Source: Patescibacteria group bacterium
GTDB taxonomy: Bacteria; Patescibacteriota; Patescibacteriia; JAHIZJ01
Direction of reading: 5' to 3'
Assembly (NCBI GenBank): GCA_041650335.1
Contig: JBAZLK010000001.1
Span: forward strand, 228,940-292,939
DNA length: 64,000 nt
In this document: positions 49,984 to 61,606 of the stretch, piece by piece
How the letters are laid out: each line of letters starts with the position of its first letter
Numbering within the stretch: the stretch's first letter is position 1
Translations under genes and position numbers: made by a program
Notes under the pieces: generated by a model
What the model saw: the letters and a program-made list of their open reading frames with translations, nothing else
What the model was told of the DNA's origin: nothing
Databases searched by the model: none

Positions 49984-51164
49984 AACCAATTGATGTATTA
50001 ATGCTGAACATGTCCAGTTTCCAGGAATGGCAAAGCGGCATTGTCAACCGAAATTTTCATGTCCTTAAAAACCTGTTAGCCCGGCCCGAGATCGGACGGG
50101 TGTTGGCCGTTGATTATCTGCCATTTTCCTTGAAGCGGGGATTAAAATCATATTTAGAGTCACAGGCCTTCGGCATGAAAGGCAAGGTGTTGTATCGGGA
50201 TTTTACGAATCGGCTTGTTCAAATCGACGCCTCCCGGCTGGGCCGTCACCGCGACAAGCTCTACACATTTTCCACCATTGATTCGGTCGTGTCAGAAGGG
50301 TTGGCGATGCGGAGCATTGAGCGGGCCGTCCGAAAGGTCGGGCTCGATTCGCCCCTGCTTTGGTCTTATTTGCCTCTCTATACGAAGCCTTTTACGCTCT
50401 TTACGGACCGGCTGACTGTTTTCGACGCTGTTGACGACTGGCGCAATCATTCGTCATATCAGGCACAGCGCGAGAAACTCGAACGCAACTATGCCCTGAT
50501 CAGCGAAAAAGCGGACTGCATTTTTACCGTCGCCGATGATTTGCGCCTGCTGTTCGGAAATAAAACAAATGTTCATTGGATACCAAACGGCGTTGATTAC
50601 GAGCGGTGGCAGGGCCGGCCTGATTTTCCTGACGATCTCGTTGGCATTCCGGCACCAATCATCGGGTATGTCGGCGTAATCCAGCACCGGATAGATCTGA
50701 AATTAATCCAGCGCGTCGCCGAAAAAAATCCTAATAAATCATTCGTTTTTGTCGGCGTCGTCTGGCCAGATGTCGATCAGTCGAAACTGCAGAGGTTGTC
50801 CAATGTCTATTTTCTTGGCCAGAAGCCGTATGATGAACTGCCAAAATACCTGACGCATTTTCATATTGGTATCATCCCGCATAAAGTTGATCCTTTTACG
50901 AAGTCCATGAATCCCCTGAAGCTCTATGAATACCTGGCCTGCGGTTTGCCGGTGGTCTCGACGCCGGTGGCCGGATTGGAAATGTTTCCGGGCATGATTC
51001 GAGTCGCTTCGGACGACGAATATTTCAGCCAGCAAATCGACGAGGCGCTCGCGACTGACAGCCAAGAACAACGCCTGATGCGCAAAGCGGCCGTGAAACC
51101 GCATTCCTGGACGACTCGAGTTGAGACGATGCTGTCGGTCATCAAACCGCAACTTCGTGATTAG
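49980..51164 (+). CDS. Glycosyltransferase (GT1/GT4-like C-terminal domain)
   Basis: ...GIIPHKVDPFTKSMNPLKLYEYLACGLPVVSTPVAG... is the GT-B C-terminal nucleotide-sugar binding region. 4 nt overlap with the upstream gene. Confidence 0.65.
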   Translation: MKPIDVLMLNMSSFQEWQSGIVNRNFHVLKNLLARPEIGRVLAVDYLPFSLKRGLKSYLESQAFGMKGKVLYRDFTNRLVQIDASRLGRHRDKLYTFSTIDSVVSEGLAMRSIERAVRKVGLDSPLLWSYLPLYTKPFTLFTDRLTVFDAVDDWRNHSSYQAQREKLERNYALISEKADCIFTVADDLRLLFGNKTNVHWIPNGVDYERWQGRPDFPDDLVGIPAPIIGYVGVIQHRIDLKLIQRVAEKNPNKSFVFVGVVWPDVDQSKLQRLSNVYFLGQKPYDELPKYLTHFHIGIIPHKVDPFTKSMNPLKLYEYLACGLPVVSTPVAGLEMFPGMIRVASDDEYFSQQIDEALATDSQEQRLMRKAAVKPHSWTTRVETMLSVIKPQLRD

Positions 51165-51196
51165 GATTTTTTGATAATTTTTGTTACACTTCAGCT

Positions 51197-51526
51197 ATGC
51201 TCAAAGAATCAGTCTACGTGAAAATTGAGACGGCTGTCCCGGTGGCAGAGGCCGAACGGATACGGAAAGCGCTCGGCGATGCCGGGGCTGGGAAGGTTGG
51301 TAATTACTCGCATTGCAGCGGTTCCTGGATTTCAATCGGCCGATTTACGCCCCTGGCCGGTGCAAAACCCGCCATTGGTGTTATTGGGACGCACGAAGAA
51401 GTTAACGAGGAGATAATCCAGGTACTTTGCCACAAGGATAAAGTCAAAGATGTCGTTGCCGCCCTGAAAAAAGCCCATCCCTATGAAGAGCCGCCGATTG
51501 ACATCATTCCACGATACGAGGTATAA
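51197..51526 (+). CDS. Small alpha/beta protein, CutA/PII-like fold suspected; hypothetical
   Basis: VYVKIETAVPVAEAERIRKALGDAG...AHPYEEPPIDIIP; the terminal HPYE(V/E)P motif resembles CutA1. Weak evidence. Confidence 0.35.
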   Translation: MLKESVYVKIETAVPVAEAERIRKALGDAGAGKVGNYSHCSGSWISIGRFTPLAGAKPAIGVIGTHEEVNEEIIQVLCHKDKVKDVVAALKKAHPYEEPPIDIIPRYEV

Positions 51527-51570
51527 GTTACGGGAAAGGTATTGCATAATGTCAAAATGTTTGGTAATTT

Positions 51571-51646
51571 GCCGGAGTAGCTCAGTTGGTAGAGCAACGC
51601 TTTTGTAAAGCGAAGGTCGGGGGTTCGAATCCTCTCTCCGGCTCCA
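51571..51646 (+). tRNA. tRNA-Thr (anticodon UGU)
   Basis: Manual cloverleaf fold of gccggagtagctcagttggtagagcaacgcttttgtaaagcgaaggtcgggggttcgaatcctctctccggctCCA: 7 bp acceptor, D-arm gctc/gagc, anticodon loop ttTGTaa, T-loop ttcgaat, encoded CCA. Confidence 0.85.
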
Positions 51647-51822
51647 GACGAACGTCGCAAACCAAATCAGAAAGCCTGGCAAAAAGCTTTAAATAAGTTC
51701 ATTGCTCATATAAACTCACAAAACAGTAACAGTTGAAATAGCCAGTAAAACCAATAAACAAATTAACTAATCAATCGATAAACCAATAAATCAATCATCT
51801 ATTATTCTAATAAACCATCCTT

Positions 51823-51978
51823 ATGTCCCAGGACAACCTCATCAAGCTCGAATGCACGGTTTGCAAACACACCAACTATCAATCGCACAAAAACAAGAAG
51901 ACCCTGAAAAATCGGCTCGAACTCAAGAAATATTGTACTTGGTGTGGCAAGCATACTGTTCATAAAGAAACAAAATAA
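51823..51978 (+). CDS. rpmG: 50S ribosomal protein L33 (not in supplied ORF track; below size cutoff)
   Basis: Translation: [51 protein letters not shown] is a Cys4 zinc-ribbon L33 (LECTxCKxxNY...LELKKYCxxCxKHTxHKE). Confidence 0.9.
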
Positions 51979-51980
51979 GC

Positions 51981-52400
51981 ATGACCGGCACGGACGCTCG
52001 CTATCCAGAGACTGGCACGACCTGGAAGGTTGTTGATGAAATAATCGAAATCCGGTTAGGTGCTGATAGCGCTAGCCATGAGGCCTCAGTCGGCGAGATG
52101 CTTTGGTTGGAAGAACAGCTGAAAATTTTCCAAACGCAATTTCCAAATAAGCGCTGGGGAATCGCGATTGATTTCAGCCGCTTACCGGTTCAGCAGACGA
52201 GCGCCGCTCGATTTCGTTCGATGATGAGTTGGCTCTTGAAAGAGGCGAGTGTGGCCGCACTGGCGGTGATTCAAGCGGCGCATTCATATAAAGTGGTGAT
52301 TCAAACAATTCTTTTTGCTTCACCGAGCGCGACCGGAAAATTAAAATTTTTTGATCAACAGGAAATTGCCAACGAATGGCTGAAGATAAAAAGCAGATAA
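51981..52400 (+). CDS. Hypothetical protein, possibly STAS-like fold
   Basis: 139 aa. The alternating beta/alpha pattern (IEIRLGADSA...IAIDFSRLPVQQTSAARF...VVIQTILFASPSATG...FFDQQEIANEWL) resembles anti-sigma-antagonist/STAS-like domains. Weak. Confidence 0.3.
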   Translation: MTGTDARYPETGTTWKVVDEIIEIRLGADSASHEASVGEMLWLEEQLKIFQTQFPNKRWGIAIDFSRLPVQQTSAARFRSMMSWLLKEASVAALAVIQAAHSYKVVIQTILFASPSATGKLKFFDQQEIANEWLKIKSR

Positions 52401-52484
52401 CAAGCAATACCGCGATGAGCGCAGGCAGGCGTAGGTCTCCAGCCGCGTACCGATAGAGCGCATGAAATGATATCATTACATGAT

Positions 52485-52558
52485 GGGGGCGTAGTTCAAC
52501 AGTAGAACACTGGTCTCCAAAACCAGAAACGAGGGCGCGACACCTTCCGCCCCTGCCA
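52485..52558 (+). tRNA. Atypical tRNA-Trp (anticodon CCA) with non-canonical D-loop and T-loop
   Basis: gggggcgTAgttcAACAGTAgaacActggtCTCCAAAaccagAAACgagggCGCGACAccttccgcccctGCCA. Acceptor, D-stem, anticodon arm and 3' end closely match bacterial tRNA-Trp (compare E. coli AGGGGCGTAGTTCAATTGGTAGAGCACCGGTCTCCAAAACCGG...CCGCCCCTGCCA). The T-loop reads CGCGACA instead of TΨCGAGU and the D-loop lacks G18G19 (AACAGTA). Confidence 0.6.
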
Positions 52559-52741
52559 TGTAGTGATATACCCCTCGAACGTTTATCGAAATCAGGCAAA
52601 GTAAGGCGTCCTCTGGTGCGGGGCGATTCCCTTCGCTCCGGCCAGCAACCACCTCCCTTTGTTTAGACCGCACCCATTTTCAGTTATAAATCCGAAATCA
52701 AGAAGAATTGCATAGTACCCGAAAACCGCTATAATTATGCT

Positions 52742-54202
52742 ATGTCGAAAGCTGTGACAAACGAAAAAACAACCAAGCAAAACACGATTACCACGCGCGC
52801 CGAAGACTATGCCCAGTGGTATCTTGATGTTATTGCGGCGGCTGACCTGGCGGAGCACAGTCCGGTAAAGGGGTGCATGGTTATTAAGCCCAACGGCTAT
52901 GCCATTTGGGAGCGCATCCAACAGCTGCTGGATGGCCGTTTCAAATCAACCGGTGTGCGTAACGCCTATTTTCCTTTATTTATCCCGGAACGCTTCCTTA
53001 AACGAGAAGGCGAGCATATCGAAGGTTTTGCTCCGGAGGTTGCAGTCGTAACGCAGGCTGGTGGAAAAAAACTGGAAGAACCGTTGATTGTGCGGCCGAC
53101 TTCGGAAACGATCATGTACGAGACCTTTCATAATTGGATTCATTCCTATCGCGACTTGCCATTGCTCATCAACCAGTGGTCAAACGCGGTTCGCTGGGAA
53201 TTACGAACACGGCTTTTTTTACGAACAACGGAATTCCTTTGGCAGGAGGGACACACTGTCCATGAAACAGAAGGAGAGGCTGATGAGCGGGCGCGTCAGA
53301 TGCTGGAGATCTACCGCGAAGTCGCTGAAAAGGAAATGGCCATGCCGGTCGTAACGGGTGTCAAGTCAGAATCAGAAAAATTTGCCGGCGCCCTGAGGAC
53401 TTATTCGGTTGAAGCGATGATGCAGGACGGTAAGGCGCTGCAGCTGGCAACTTCTCATAACCTTGGTCAGAATTTTTCTAAACCCTTTAAGATCCAATTC
53501 CTTGATCGGTCCAATAAACTCCAGTATGGCTGGCAGACGAGCTGGGGTTTGAGCACGCGGTCAATCGGCGGCTTGATCATGACGCACAGCGACGATCGCG
53601 GCTTAATCTTGCCTCCCCGGATCGCCCCTCTCCAGGTTGTCATAACGACCATATATTCGTCGAAGCCGGATCAGTCGGCGACGTCGCGGGCAGCGGAAAA
53701 ATTGAAGATGTCGCTGGCCGAAAAATCAATTCGGGCCCAGGTCGATGAACGGGATCTGCGTCCGGGCGAAAAGTTTTTCACCTGGGAGAAACAAGGCATT
53801 CCCGTCCGGATTGAGCTCGGCCCGAAAGATGTCCAGGCCCAAGAAGCGGTGATAGTCCGTCGGGACACCGGCGCGAAAACAAAAGCCGCTTTCCACGGTC
53901 TCGCGGACGTCGTCGATAAGTTGTTGACCACGATACAGGCTGACCTGTATCACCGGGCGCTCGCATTTCGACAGGAGCGGACAATCAGCACCGATTCGTG
54001 GAAGACGTTTACAGCGGCCATCGCAGCCGGGAAGTTCGTCGAAGCCTATTGGTCTGAGGAAGGGGATATTGAAGCCCAGATAAAGAGGGAAACGAACGCC
54101 ACCATACGCTGCATTTCTATTGACGGCCAGACCCGGCCAGGCAAGTGCGTAAAAACCGGCCGGCCGGCCAGTCGTAAAGGTATTTTTGCCCAATCGTATT
54201 AG
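52742..54202 (+). CDS. proS: Prolyl-tRNA synthetase, archaeal/eukaryotic-type (class IIa without INS editing domain)
   Basis: YAQWYLDVIAAADLAEHSPVKGCMVIKPNGYAIWERIQ, motif 2 FRQE.., motif 3 GG..GLS.R, C-terminal zinc-binding-like extension; 486 aa. Confidence 0.85.
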   Translation: MSKAVTNEKTTKQNTITTRAEDYAQWYLDVIAAADLAEHSPVKGCMVIKPNGYAIWERIQQLLDGRFKSTGVRNAYFPLFIPERFLKREGEHIEGFAPEVAVVTQAGGKKLEEPLIVRPTSETIMYETFHNWIHSYRDLPLLINQWSNAVRWELRTRLFLRTTEFLWQEGHTVHETEGEADERARQMLEIYREVAEKEMAMPVVTGVKSESEKFAGALRTYSVEAMMQDGKALQLATSHNLGQNFSKPFKIQFLDRSNKLQYGWQTSWGLSTRSIGGLIMTHSDDRGLILPPRIAPLQVVITTIYSSKPDQSATSRAAEKLKMSLAEKSIRAQVDERDLRPGEKFFTWEKQGIPVRIELGPKDVQAQEAVIVRRDTGAKTKAAFHGLADVVDKLLTTIQADLYHRALAFRQERTISTDSWKTFTAAIAAGKFVEAYWSEEGDIEAQIKRETNATIRCISIDGQTRPGKCVKTGRPASRKGIFAQSY

Positions 54203-59103: not shown

Positions 59104-60918
59104 ATGAATATTCGCAATGTCGCCATTATCGCTCACGTCGATCATGGCAAAACAACACTTGTCGACGCGCTCTTGCGCCAATCAAAAACCTGGCTGAATA
59201 AAGAAGTCGCCGGGACTGATTTGATTATGGATTCGAATGACCTGGAGCGTGAGCGCGGGATTACCATTTTTTCAAAAAACGCATCGGTTGTCTGGCGGGG
59301 CATTAAGATTAATATTATTGATACACCCGGTCACGCCGATTTCGGCGGCGAAGTGGAGCGGGTGTTAAACATGGCTGACGGTTGCTTACTGCTCGTCGAC
59401 GCGAAAGAAGGGCCGATGCCGCAAACGCGCTTTGTTCTGAAAAAAGCCCTGGCCATGGGTCTGCGGATCATCGTGGTCGTGAACAAGATCGATAAACCCG
59501 ATGCCCGTCCAGCCGAAGTGCTTGATCGGACGTTTGACCTGTTTGTCGAGTTGGGCGCGGATGACCGGACGCTCGATTTTCCCGTGCTCTACGCCTCGGC
59601 GAAAGAGGGCCGGGCTGGTCTCACGGCAGAGCTGGCCAGTTTGACCGATATCACCCCGATTTTTGACGCCATCCTCAATGAAATACCGGCGCCGACTGGC
59701 GATCCCGCCAAACCGCTGCAGCTGCTGATCACTTCAATCGGCGCTGATGCGTACAAAGGCCGGATAGCGACTGGTCGCATCGCTCAGGGAGTGATTCGGT
59801 CAGGTGACACGATTACCCATATCAGCCGGTCAGGGATTCAAAAGAAATACCGCCTTGTTTCGCTCATGACGTATACCGGCCTTGAACGCGTCGATGTGAC
59901 CGAGGCCTCGGCCGGCGATATTGTCGCTCTGGCCGGCATTCCCGACGTGACGATCGGCGAAACGATCGCGGATGACGAAAATCCGATCGCACTGCCACTG
60001 CTCGATATTGAAGAGCCGACCGTAAAAATAACGCTGCGCGTGAATGATTCGCCGTTTGCCGGCCGGGAGGGACAGTATTGCACCTCGCGGCAGATTAACG
60101 AGCGCTTGGAAAAGGAGCTAGAAACGGATTTAGCCCTCCGAGTGGAAGACAGCCCCTCGGGCGGCTGGGCAGTGTCCGGTCGGGGTGAATTACACCTTGC
60201 CATTTTGATTGAACGGCTCCGGCGCGAGGGCTATGAACTGCAGGTTTCCCGGCCGCACGTGATTCTTCGGACGGTTGACGGCGTTGTTCAGGCGCCATTC
60301 GAGCGCGTTTTTGTCGAAGTGCCTGAGCCTCACAGCGGCGCTGTTATCCAAAAACTGGGCAGTCGGGGCGGGGAAATGCACGATTTCCAAACCCGCGAGG
60401 GCATCAGTTATTTGGAATTTGTCATTCCCACCCGAGGCCTCTTTGGTTTCCGGAGTGAATTTCTGACGGATACGCGCGGTCTCGGCATCATGAATACCCT
60501 GTTTGAGGGCTATTTTCCTGATCCGGGCAACTGGCATGAGCGCGAACAGGGCTCACTTGTCGCCCACGAAAGCGGTGTTTCAAATCTTTACGGATTACTC
60601 AACGTCCAGGACCGCGGCACGTTTTTCATCGGTCCGGGCGTCGAGGTGTATAAAGGCCAGGTTGTGGGGCAAAATTCGCGCGAGGATGATATTCACGTAA
60701 ATGTTTGTAAAACAAAGCAGCTTTCAAATATGCGTTCGAAGGGCGACGGTAGCGCCGAACATTTCAATCGGCCAAAGGAAATGGGCCTCGAGGATGCCCT
60801 GGAGTATATCAGTGACGATGAATTAGTCGAAGTCACGCCGAAATCGATCCGGATACGAAAAAAAACCTTAGACCAGGCAATCGCGAAAAAGCTCGCCCGC
60901 GAGGGAAAGGGCGCGTAA
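59104..60918 (+). CDS. typA: Translational GTPase TypA/BipA
   Basis: MNIRNVAIIAHVDHGKTTLVDALL, DTPGHADF, NKIDK; EF-G-like domain order. Confidence 0.9.
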   Translation: MNIRNVAIIAHVDHGKTTLVDALLRQSKTWLNKEVAGTDLIMDSNDLERERGITIFSKNASVVWRGIKINIIDTPGHADFGGEVERVLNMADGCLLLVDAKEGPMPQTRFVLKKALAMGLRIIVVVNKIDKPDARPAEVLDRTFDLFVELGADDRTLDFPVLYASAKEGRAGLTAELASLTDITPIFDAILNEIPAPTGDPAKPLQLLITSIGADAYKGRIATGRIAQGVIRSGDTITHISRSGIQKKYRLVSLMTYTGLERVDVTEASAGDIVALAGIPDVTIGETIADDENPIALPLLDIEEPTVKITLRVNDSPFAGREGQYCTSRQINERLEKELETDLALRVEDSPSGGWAVSGRGELHLAILIERLRREGYELQVSRPHVILRTVDGVVQAPFERVFVEVPEPHSGAVIQKLGSRGGEMHDFQTREGISYLEFVIPTRGLFGFRSEFLTDTRGLGIMNTLFEGYFPDPGNWHEREQGSLVAHESGVSNLYGLLNVQDRGTFFIGPGVEVYKGQVVGQNSREDDIHVNVCKTKQLSNMRSKGDGSAEHFNRPKEMGLEDALEYISDDELVEVTPKSIRIRKKTLDQAIAKKLAREGKGA

Positions 60919-60961
60919 GCCGGTTTTTGACAGACCGCTACGTGCACGGTAGTCTTAGGAG

Positions 60962-61606
60962 GTGACAAATATCTTTGCCGTCTATAAGCCTGTCGGTCCG
61001 ACCTCGAACGACATCCTTGAGGATATCCGTCGTCGCACCGGCATAAAAAAAGTCGGCCACGCTGGCACACTCGATCCGCTCGCCAGCGGCGTTTTGGTTG
61101 TGGCCATCGGCCGCAACGCGACGAAGCGACTTTCGGCAGAGGTGGCCAAGGAGAAAGAATACCTTGCCGCTATCCGGCTCGGCGAGGAAAGCACGACCGA
61201 CGACGCGGAGGGCGAAAAAACGAAACAGGCAATTGAAACACCGCCGAGTCGTGAGCAGATTCAAGAAATTTTGCCACAATTTGTCGGTCAGATCGAGCAG
61301 ATGCCGCCGAAATATAGCGCCGTAAAGATCAAGGGACGGGAAGCCTATAAATACGCCCGTCAGAATCAAGCCGTTATCTTGGAGCCGAGAATGGTCACGG
61401 TAAAAGAAATTACGTTGGTTTCATATGCCTGGCCGGACGTCGTCTTGCGCGTCGTCACCGGACCGGGCGTCTACATCCGTTCCCTGGCCAGGGATCTCGG
61501 TCGGGCCCTCGGTGTCGGTGGCTATATTTTCGCTTTGGAGCGGACGCGGGTGGGGGAGTTTACGAAAGATCAGTGCGTCAATCCCGATCAAATAACGGTA
61601 CGATAA
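60962..61606 (+). CDS. truB: tRNA pseudouridine(55) synthase
   Basis: KPVGPTSNDILEDIRRRTGIKKVGHAGTLDPLASGVLVVAIG carries the catalytic Asp in GTLDP; 214 aa (short, no PUA domain). Confidence 0.85.
   Translation: MTNIFAVYKPVGPTSNDILEDIRRRTGIKKVGHAGTLDPLASGVLVVAIGRNATKRLSAEVAKEKEYLAAIRLGEESTTDDAEGEKTKQAIETPPSREQIQEILPQFVGQIEQMPPKYSAVKIKGREAYKYARQNQAVILEPRMVTVKEITLVSYAWPDVVLRVVTGPGVYIRSLARDLGRALGVGGYIFALERTRVGEFTKDQCVNPDQITVR

Follow-up and report, generated by a model that had tools for sequence, protein, structure and literature searches.

Can a tRNA serve translation when the two loops that build its elbow depart from U55/Psi55 and G18, bases treated as near-universal in cytoplasmic tRNAs? 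The question is raised by a tRNA-Trp(CCA) gene at positions 52485-52558 of the window, by which we mean the whole analysed stretch of 64,000 nucleotides (64 kb) of contig JBAZLK010000001.1 from a Patescibacteria group bacterium, a member of the candidate phyla radiation (CPR). The contig is a metagenome assembly of 364 kb, and both the genes on it and its best matches in the genome collection are those of Patescibacteria/CPR metagenome-assembled genomes. The original prediction, made from the letters of the sequence, had left a choice between a decaying pseudo-tRNA and a functional tRNA with an unusually built elbow. Our analysis favors the second option. The gene is most likely the working tRNA-Trp of this CPR/Patescibacteria bacterium, with an elbow closed by a variant D-loop/T-loop lock, and its elbow contacts are substituted, not lost. 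Aminoacylation and translational use of this tRNA would be expected from the sequence features described below.

The tRNA-Trp gene and its elbow

The gene parses directly as GGGGGCG-UA-GUUC-AACAGUA-GAAC-A-CUGGU-CUCCAAA-ACCAG-AAAC-GAGGG-CGCGACA-CCUUC-CGCCCCU-G-CCA. It comprises the acceptor stem GGGGGCG/CGCCCCU with U8 and A9 behind its 5' strand, the D-stem GUUC/GAAC, the anticodon stem CUGGU/ACCAG and the T-stem GAGGG/CCUUC, and the earlier description of the stems, the CCA anticodon, G73, the encoded CCA and both loops holds on this parsing. The minimum free energy fold of the segment is exactly the cloverleaf, while the fold energy of the tRNA alone is ordinary (z -1.65). The Rfam model RF00005 matches over its entire length (model 1-71/71) with 56.4 bits against a cut-off of 29 (E 1.7e-9) and flags no non-standard pairs; the scores of the relatives range from 52 to 62 bits. 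The very low covariance-model score that had been proposed as the mark of a pseudogene is thus not observed. ARAGORN, a second program suggested at that stage, does not call the gene with the intron option either on or off. It also misses about 20 of the 58 other members of the family, mainly those with C54, G54 or A54, with Rfam scores of 50-62 bits where tested. Because the window gene escapes ARAGORN, such genomes may be scored as being without a tRNA-Trp.

The identity set of bacterial tRNA-Trp for tryptophanyl-tRNA synthetase consists of the anticodon CCA, G73 and the A9/U8 core, and all of these elements (CCA, G73, U8 and A9) are present in the window gene. G73 is invariant in 59 homologues, though the scans that collected them left this position free. 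As predicted for the sole Trp acceptor, ARAGORN and Rfam scans of the 64-kb window found no other tRNA with a CCA anticodon. The only other tRNA in the window is a Thr(UGU) at 51571-51646, with GG in its D-loop and the canonical T-arm GGUUCGAAUCC.

When compared to canonical bacterial tRNA-Trp (RF00005; the E. coli and B. subtilis trpT type), the window gene shares the cloverleaf, the CCA anticodon in a CUCCAAA loop, G73, U8, A9, the G19-C56 and G53-C61 pairs, the encoded CCA and a location beside rpmG. It differs in having A18 instead of G18, G55 instead of U55/Psi55, C54 instead of T54 and CA instead of YU at bases 59-60, as well as in its G1-U72 wobble and in its loop sizes, 7 nt for the D-loop and 4 nt for the variable loop (AAAC). 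In the elbow, G19-C56 is intact, 18:55 is A:G and 54:58 is C:A. The D-loop has no GG dinucleotide, yet the equivalent of G19 (52502) is kept. Both elbow contacts had been taken to be altered together, but G19-C56 is retained and only 18:55 (plus base 54) is swapped. The rewired elbow is a single, well-supported swap of a tertiary pair to the generic T-loop type.

Homologues were collected in two scans. The genome scan, with one genome per species, required the Trp anticodon arm and a T-loop without U at position 55, and returned at least 120 loci. The metagenome scan required the D-arm (AAYAGYA loop) and the anticodon arm, left the T-arm free, and returned 94 loci with 73 distinct sequences. 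Across 120 CPR tRNA-Trp, the 18:55 pair is A:G in 59 and G:C in 61 with no mixed combinations, and 19:56 is G:C in 119 of the 120. In the metagenome set, which was selected on the A18 D-loop, G55 is found in 72/72 sequences that reach the T-loop (of the 73 distinct ones). A similar association was observed for all isoacceptors at the genome loci as called by ARAGORN: among the matches listed, the D-loop GG is missing beside 131 of 146 G55 loops (UGC or CGC) and present beside 100 of 101 UUC loops and 92 of 92 UCC loops. On 63 viral contigs, 104 of 118 G55 tRNAs have no GG and 242 of 244 UUC tRNAs have it. Several of the seeming exceptions, AGGAGCA among them, have GG at an earlier place in the D-loop and still AG before YA; canonical D-loops end in GGYA, those of G55 tRNAs in AGYA. 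Altogether, G55 is associated with an AG rather than a GG D-loop in three independently selected sets.

The remaining elbow pair was analysed in an ungapped alignment of 59 distinct full-length G55 tRNA-Trp members (alignment A1). Here 54:58 is U:A in 19, C:A in 12, G:G in 20, A:U in seven and A:G in one, with a mutual information of 1.31 bits that ranks third of all column pairs and is level with the Watson-Crick stems. C54 of the window gene is one state of this maintained pair, and the closest relatives of the gene carry U54. Two further observations concern the same alignment. D-loop positions 16/17 covary with T-loop positions 59-60 (columns 16 and 57-58), C being accompanied by CA in 39 cases, and U by AU or UU. 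At pair 1:72 (columns 1 and 70), 38 of the 59 members have a G-U wobble.

Standard pairs fill 99.7% of the A1 cells, in part by construction because members were filtered for stem pairing, and double changes are found in 13 of the 22 pairs (228 cells). Compensatory changes occur in all four stems, the covariation score was matched by 0/500 shuffles, and slid controls are 40-54% paired. A decaying pseudo-tRNA that has retained its cloverleaf by chance would account for the missing ARAGORN call, for T- and D-loops that depart from near-universal bases and for a fold z-score of only -1.65. For 52485-52558 this explanation is extremely unlikely in view of the 59 distinct homologues, their compensatory changes in four stems and covarying tertiary pairs, the recurrence of the same loop pair in distant CPR lineages and phages, and an Rfam score nearly twice the cut-off. 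The other alternative of the original prediction, an unusual functional tRNA with a different elbow, is supported by the conservation of the family with its compensatory changes, by tertiary covariation and by positional orthology.

Among the individual relatives, two Patescibacteria metagenome-assembled genomes (MAGs; L063 and L106) have near-identical genes with the same D-loop and a UGCGACA T-loop. A Falkowbacteria MAG (L111) has identical loops (AACAGUA and CGCGACA) on different stems, and a tRNA-Trp of the window type is also found in Saccharibacteria (L002). At positions 5363-5801 of L002, a UGCAA T-loop without the D-loop GG is common to three adjacent chromosomal genes, those for Trp, Thr(GGU) and Tyr, while Val(CAC) is canonical. 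Since Thr(GGU) and Tyr share it there, the variant elbow extends beyond tRNA-Trp in some CPR lineages.

Several points weigh against the reading of the window gene as a working tRNA-Trp with a variant lock. Members entered A1 only if at least 6/7 positions of the acceptor stem, 3/4 of the D-stem and 4/5 each of the anticodon and T stems were paired. Several A1 columns were fixed by the search patterns; the anticodon-loop columns, for instance, are invariant but were set in this way. The A18-G55 geometry proposed below is drawn by analogy with T-loops outside tRNA, and each of the remnants flanking the window gene is weak by itself, the 3' piece having an E of 2.4. At L125 (916-1098), a canonical tRNA-Trp (UUCGAUU, GG; 50.4 bits) stands 41 nt upstream of the G55 copy (54.2 bits). 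L137 has three tandem tRNA-Trp genes, and on the evidence of these two loci some genomes carry both elbow types.

A commoner CPR tRNA-Trp has the T-loop UCCGAUU (C55) with a normal GG D-loop. This type makes up 75 of 121 among the matches listed, a count that comes from a scan excluding U55 tRNAs and is not a frequency among all tRNA-Trp. Examples are L003, L005, L009, L010, L013 and about 70 others from Saccharibacteria, Microgenomates, Parcubacteria, Peregrinibacteria and SR1. C55 is apparently a second systematic departure from U55 that is specific to tRNA-Trp.

Table 1. Features at and around the tRNA-Trp gene (window coordinates).
Feature	Position	Strand	Description
tRNA-Trp(CCA)	52485-52558	+	71 nt through discriminator G73, then encoded CCA
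D-loop AACAGUA	52498-52504	+	A 52501 replaces G18; G 52502 is G19
Anticodon loop CUCCAAA	52515-52521	+	U33, anticodon CCA 52517-52519, A37
T-loop C54 G55 C56 G57 A58 C59 A60	52536-52542	+	bases 1-5 of CGNRA type; C56 is 52538
Inverted repeat, left arm ATATCATTACATG	52470-52482	+	13 bp, extends the acceptor stem
Inverted repeat, right arm CATGTAGTGATAT	52557-52569	+	begins within the encoded CCA
Upstream remnant (probable)	52410-52441	+	degraded inserted hairpin CCGCGATGAGCGCAGG and 5' side of an anticodon arm GGTCTCCA (52434-52441)
Downstream remnant (probable)	52615-52644	+	GGTGCGGGGCGATTCCCTTCGCTCCGGCCA: T-arm with shortened loop, 3' acceptor strand, CCA
rpmG	51823-51978	+	ribosomal protein L33, 51 aa; marks the housekeeping tRNA-Trp slot
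ORF139	51981-52400	+	139 aa, unannotated; between rpmG and the tRNA remnants
proS	52742-54202

Proposed geometry of the A18-G55 elbow

A precedent for the altered elbow is found among T-loops outside tRNA. In FMN and cobalamin riboswitches, T-loops follow the pattern YGNRA (UGNRA 88.7%, CGNRA 10.9%), the base intercalating between positions 4 and 5 is nearly always adenosine, and a C-A closing pair performs nearly like U-A (bioRxiv 10.1101/2022.12.26.521914). In the same work the tRNA loop, UUCRA with a guanine partner, appears as the deviant case, and a GGAAG T-loop exists in rRNA (bioRxiv 10.1101/2022.12.26.521914). The window T-loop CGCGA together with A18 is of the YGNRA type, with an adenine on the partner strand. 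As in the YGNRA modules of FMN and cobalamin riboswitches, RNase P RNA and rRNA, the window loop (CGCGA is CGNRA) and the loops of its relatives (UGCGA and UGCAA are UGNRA; GGCGG and GGCAG are comparable to rRNA GGAAG) take a partner-loop adenine in place of the tRNA-specific guanine. Their closing pair likewise varies between U:A, C:A and G:G. Unlike these modules, the one in the window sits in a tRNA elbow and its position 3 (C56) is still paired to G19, with the geometry drawn by analogy.

By this analogy, A18 would stack between G57 and A58 and bond to G55. A18-G55 would then take over from the inner G18-Psi55 pair and C54-A58 from U54-A58. The outer G19-C56 pair, which offers the flat face for the ribosome and RNase P, would still cap the elbow, and recognition by both would in this way be preserved. 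The window tRNA-Trp has no sites for m5U54 (T54), Psi55 and Gm18, and as the elbow cannot carry these modifications, it does not depend on them. A gene for TruB, the Psi55 synthase, was found at about 60917-61561 (L001 18176-18820), though the tRNA-Trp of the organism has no U55; it presumably serves other tRNAs of the genome.

Departures from the G18G19 and T54-Psi55 signature are compatible with function in tRNA-Pyl and in animal mitochondrial tRNAs (PMC7609411, PMC2777451). The loops of these tRNAs are shrunken or variable and their contacts weakened or idiosyncratic, whereas the class found in the window keeps standard loop sizes and makes a clean swap of one pair. If A18-G55 is a widespread and consistent alternative, with 54:58 free to vary, a tRNA elbow can be built from a generic T-loop module, and these tRNAs would be a natural system for asking what purpose T54, Psi55 and Gm18 serve.

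The rpmG slot and nested tRNA-Trp genes

By tblastn, tRNA-Trp is located directly downstream of rpmG on the same strand in at least 54 loci of the G55 type (median gap 232 nt) and at least 41 of the C55 type. At least 12 of the G55 loci are simple: after rpmG and a short spacer comes the G55 tRNA, which a terminator-like hairpin follows, and the surroundings contain neither another tRNA-Trp nor outer fragments. With ORF139, an open reading frame (ORF) encoding 139 aa, placed between them, rpmG and the tRNA of the window are 506 nt apart (51979-52484). ORF139 had no Pfam, NCBIfam or meaningful PHROG matches, including none to a nuclease family, and no homologues in 214 fetched loci; its exact protein is on record in the same organism only. 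In an exact-protein look-up, rpmG of the window was not on record. ORF139 fills the position where relatives carry the 5' half of an older tRNA or an endonuclease gene. The original prediction had placed the tRNA between rpmG and proS. These positions are correct, but ORF139 also lies between rpmG and the tRNA, and the adjacency of proS is incidental, since proS is unlinked to the tRNA in every other locus examined. A lenient Rfam scan of 51000-53200, the surroundings of the tRNA, was negative for T-boxes, riboswitches, introns and ribozymes, and a promoter and terminator scan of 51500-52900 gave a site count no higher than in shuffles. An extended -10-like TGATATCAT at 52468-52476 was noted by eye only.

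The position of the gene also bears on whether it could encode a specialised tRNA-Trp that is kept off the ribosome, such as one serving a tRNA-dependent biosynthetic enzyme. Altered T-loops are a feature of the staphylococcal non-proteinogenic tRNA-Gly, and the loop in the window is reminiscent of tRNAs that evade EF-Tu; in L125 and L137 the G55 type stands beside other tRNA-Trp copies. Such a role is nevertheless very unlikely for a gene in the housekeeping rpmG slot that is the sole tRNA-Trp in most loci examined. No gene for a tRNA-dependent enzyme is adjacent to it in the window, and entire phage tRNA sets share its elbow.

The window gene is flanked by two fragments (Table 1) that most likely represent the remnant of an older tRNA-Trp gene. 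This assignment draws on homology with L161, the closest relative (rpmG 88% identical), and on clearer nested loci elsewhere. The window aligns block-wise with the second level of nesting in L161. The upstream fragment, in which the acceptor and D-arm portion is gone, corresponds to the inserted hairpin and GGUCUCCA, and the downstream fragment to the T-arm, 3' acceptor strand and CCA, with an 18-nt block being identical. The second-level 5' half of L161, GGGGGTT-TC-GTCC-AGTGGTA-GGAC, is intact, and the 3' end AACCCCC-G-CCA is complementary to GGGGGTT. When the window was searched by nhmmer with a profile of CPR tRNA-Trp, 52624-52644 was aligned to model positions 54-74 as the third-best match in the 64 kb, at E 2.4. 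The GC-rich stem-forming sequence that had been reported downstream of the tRNA is real, and is most likely this remnant of a T-arm and acceptor. It is not indicated to be an independent structured RNA, because the downstream 183 nt folded alone are ordinary (z -1.48). The idea of a decaying pseudo-tRNA, which conservation and compensatory change contradict for 52485-52558, fits 52410-52441 and 52615-52644, both of which have the character of pseudogene pieces.

Nesting is most readable in two relatives. In L063, the 5' half GGGGGAA-UA-AUUC-AUCGGUA-GAAC-G-ACGGU-CUCC (model 2-34, E 2e-4) is followed by a 43-nt arm and then the G55 tRNA; behind it come a 63-nt arm and the 3' half AAA-ACCGU-...GAGGG-UUCGAUU-CCUUC-...GCCA (model 34-74, E 3e-7). 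In L161, where nhmmer detected a 5' half upstream of the inner tRNA at E 0.008, there are three nested levels: an outermost gene of the U55 type (UUCGAAA T-loop), a middle one with an AGUGGUA D-loop and an innermost G55 gene, each tRNA-Trp being inserted in the anticodon of the preceding one. The break falls between anticodon bases C35 and A36 in L063 and L161, where both sides are readable. L106 retains the outer 5' half and has lost the 3' half that L063 retains. A shortened T-loop of 6 nt is shared by L161 and the outer gene of the window, and a similar GCGATT loop is found in the distal L063 fragment. The outer tRNA-Trp genes are dead and decaying differently between relatives. ARAGORN, with introns of 0-450 nt allowed, calls no outer interrupted tRNA, the halves being found by the nhmmer profile. 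Hand pairing of the L063 junctions gives a 4x5 internal loop beside a 9-bp helix, which does not look like the pair of 3-nt bulges around a 4-bp helix that marks an archaeal-type bulge-helix-bulge tRNA intron.

The inner tRNA-Trp genes are also framed by inverted repeats. In the window, the region 52455-52585 folds with -47.5 kcal/mol (z -5.8, 0/200 shuffles). Around the inner tRNA, repeats that run for 11-19 bp without interruption are confined to loci with outer fragments, namely L063, L122, L138, L161, L163 and the window. A tRNA-Trp of the C55 type can be the nested invader as well (L075, L099, L095), and in L075 the arms around it (CCGCCUGC... and ...GCGGGCAGGC) are similar to the arms in L063, L106 and L161. 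Across the nested loci, the interrupted outer genes are U55 with GG or C55-like, and the 18:55 pair of the invader is always different.

Endonuclease genes are found beside some of these tRNAs. GIY-YIG ORFs of 81 aa in L138 (Pfam E 4e-15) and 83 aa in L163 (2e-9) lie between rpmG and the G55 tRNA, with 19 nt separating their ends from the tRNA. In L138, a broken older tRNA gene has left its first bases between rpmG and the GIY-YIG ORF. A GIY-YIG homologue is similarly placed in L191 and, beside a C55-type tRNA-Trp, in L116. In L176 an HNH endonuclease (phrog_2255, E 9e-29) overlaps the tRNA start, while 23S_rRNA_IVP proteins are encoded nearby in L125, L126, L161 and L193. In addition, GC-rich palindromic hairpins occupy the anticodon loop and T-loop of broken older tRNA-Trp copies in L138 (601-700) and L163 (about 960-1110). 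They come with 4-nt duplications (TCTC / TCTCCA[hairpin]TCCAAAACC) and look like small palindromic mobile elements targeting that loop.

With such neighbours, the G55 tRNA could belong to a mobile insertion or to something like an intron, in which its tRNA shape would cap the structure or signal processing. It would then have no part in translation, and the outer interrupted tRNA-Trp would be the real gene. This explanation gains from the tRNA lying between the halves of another tRNA-Trp, or just downstream of its 5' half, in L063, L106, L161, L122 and L193, from the break between C35 and A36 in L063 and L161, from the location at the tip of an inverted repeat of 11-19 bp, and from the GIY-YIG or HNH genes that adjoin it in L138, L163, L191 and L176. 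However, no group I intron or ribozyme was found at 51000-53200 of the window (E up to 10) or in nine nested loci (E up to 1). The outer genes decay in different ways, with the 3' half lost in L106 and the 5' acceptor and D-arm in the window, and a shortened T-loop marks L161 and the window, and perhaps the distal L063 fragment as well. In at least 12 loci, rpmG is followed by a solitary G55 tRNA. The G55 tRNA has also kept G73 and the cloverleaf though G73, A9 and the stems were left free by the scans. We therefore regard a mere module of an insertion as unlikely.

For the working tRNA-Trp, we propose instead that it arrived within a small insertion. An older tRNA-Trp gene behind rpmG would have been broken up by this insertion and its function taken over, and the pieces on either side of the present tRNA would be what is left of it; this mode of insertion is suggested by the nested relatives. 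More generally, it is likely that small cassettes associated with endonucleases insert into the resident tRNA-Trp and stay harmless by means of the replacement tRNA that they bring. Insertion sequences in CPR rRNA genes encode LAGLIDADG, GIY-YIG and 23S_rRNA_IVP proteins, and no tRNA is mentioned for them (PMC11270868). They and the group I introns or integrative elements of tRNA genes likewise break a conserved RNA gene at a conserved site, and GIY-YIG (L138, L163, L191, L116) as well as 23S_rRNA_IVP proteins also occur beside the tRNA-Trp cassettes. In contrast to these insertions and introns, the proposed tRNA-Trp cassette shows no detectable ribozyme core and, rather than being spliced out, brings a complete replacement tRNA, and the outer gene decays. 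The nested loci point to a possible new element that compensates the gene it breaks by a carried replacement.

tRNA arrays and phages

The G55 elbow is not restricted to single genes. It also occurs in arrays in MAGs of Verrucomicrobiota, Planctomycetota and other groups; these pack 10-25 tRNAs into 8 kb, and nearly every isoacceptor in them has a UGCRA T-loop. A G55 tRNA-Trp is also present on 63 IMG/VR viral contigs, some of which have G55 tRNAs throughout (18/18, 15/15 and 8/8), and some others of which have tRNA-Trp as their sole G55 tRNA (1/29 and 1/25). Since whole phage and array tRNA sets use the A18/G55 elbow, a non-functional tRNA is implausible. When cultured phages were searched by BLAST with the window tRNA and a gut-phage G55 tRNA-Trp, only canonical tRNAs (UUCGA/GG) of Rhizobium, Phaeobacter, Mycobacterium and Gordonia phages were returned, and no cultured-phage example of a G55 tRNA-Trp was identified in that search.

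Long tRNA arrays and phage tRNA clusters have been described (PMC8421152, PMC6409571), and the MAG arrays and IMG/VR contigs have the same A18/G55 elbow as the window gene; the latter differs in being a single chromosomal gene in a housekeeping position. The passages of PMC8421152 and PMC6409571 reached by term searches do not discuss the T-loop, U55 or G18 of arrayed tRNAs. A literature search, with most subscription journals outside its scope, found no description of G55/A18 tRNAs or of nested tRNA-Trp genes. The G55/A18 tRNAs are apparently an undescribed class, large in CPR bacteria and phages.

That whole phage tRNA sets are built with this elbow suggests that it is connected with phage-host conflicts over tRNA. 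A tentative and rather doubtful extension would be that the A18-G55 (and C55) elbow marks travelling tRNA genes, found in phage sets, in arrays and in anticodon-inserting cassettes that destroy the resident tRNA-Trp and supply their own copy. The constant difference at 18:55 between outer and invading tRNAs is consistent with this idea. If it were true, the altered elbow would be adaptive. It could free an incoming tRNA from the T54, Psi55 and Gm18 modification of its host, or could resist a nuclease directed at the elbow or T-loop or the endonuclease of the cassette itself. A toxin of the T-loop-cleaving kind is CdiA-CT of Burkholderia E479, which cuts between T54 and Psi55.

Arrays with UGCRA loops and AG D-loops were noted at L004, L006, L038, L043, L062, L092, L102, L103 and L112, and at the viral L231, L266 and L259. 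The tRNA-Met copy in such arrays often retains the canonical UUC loop, as in L011, L038, L043 and L051.

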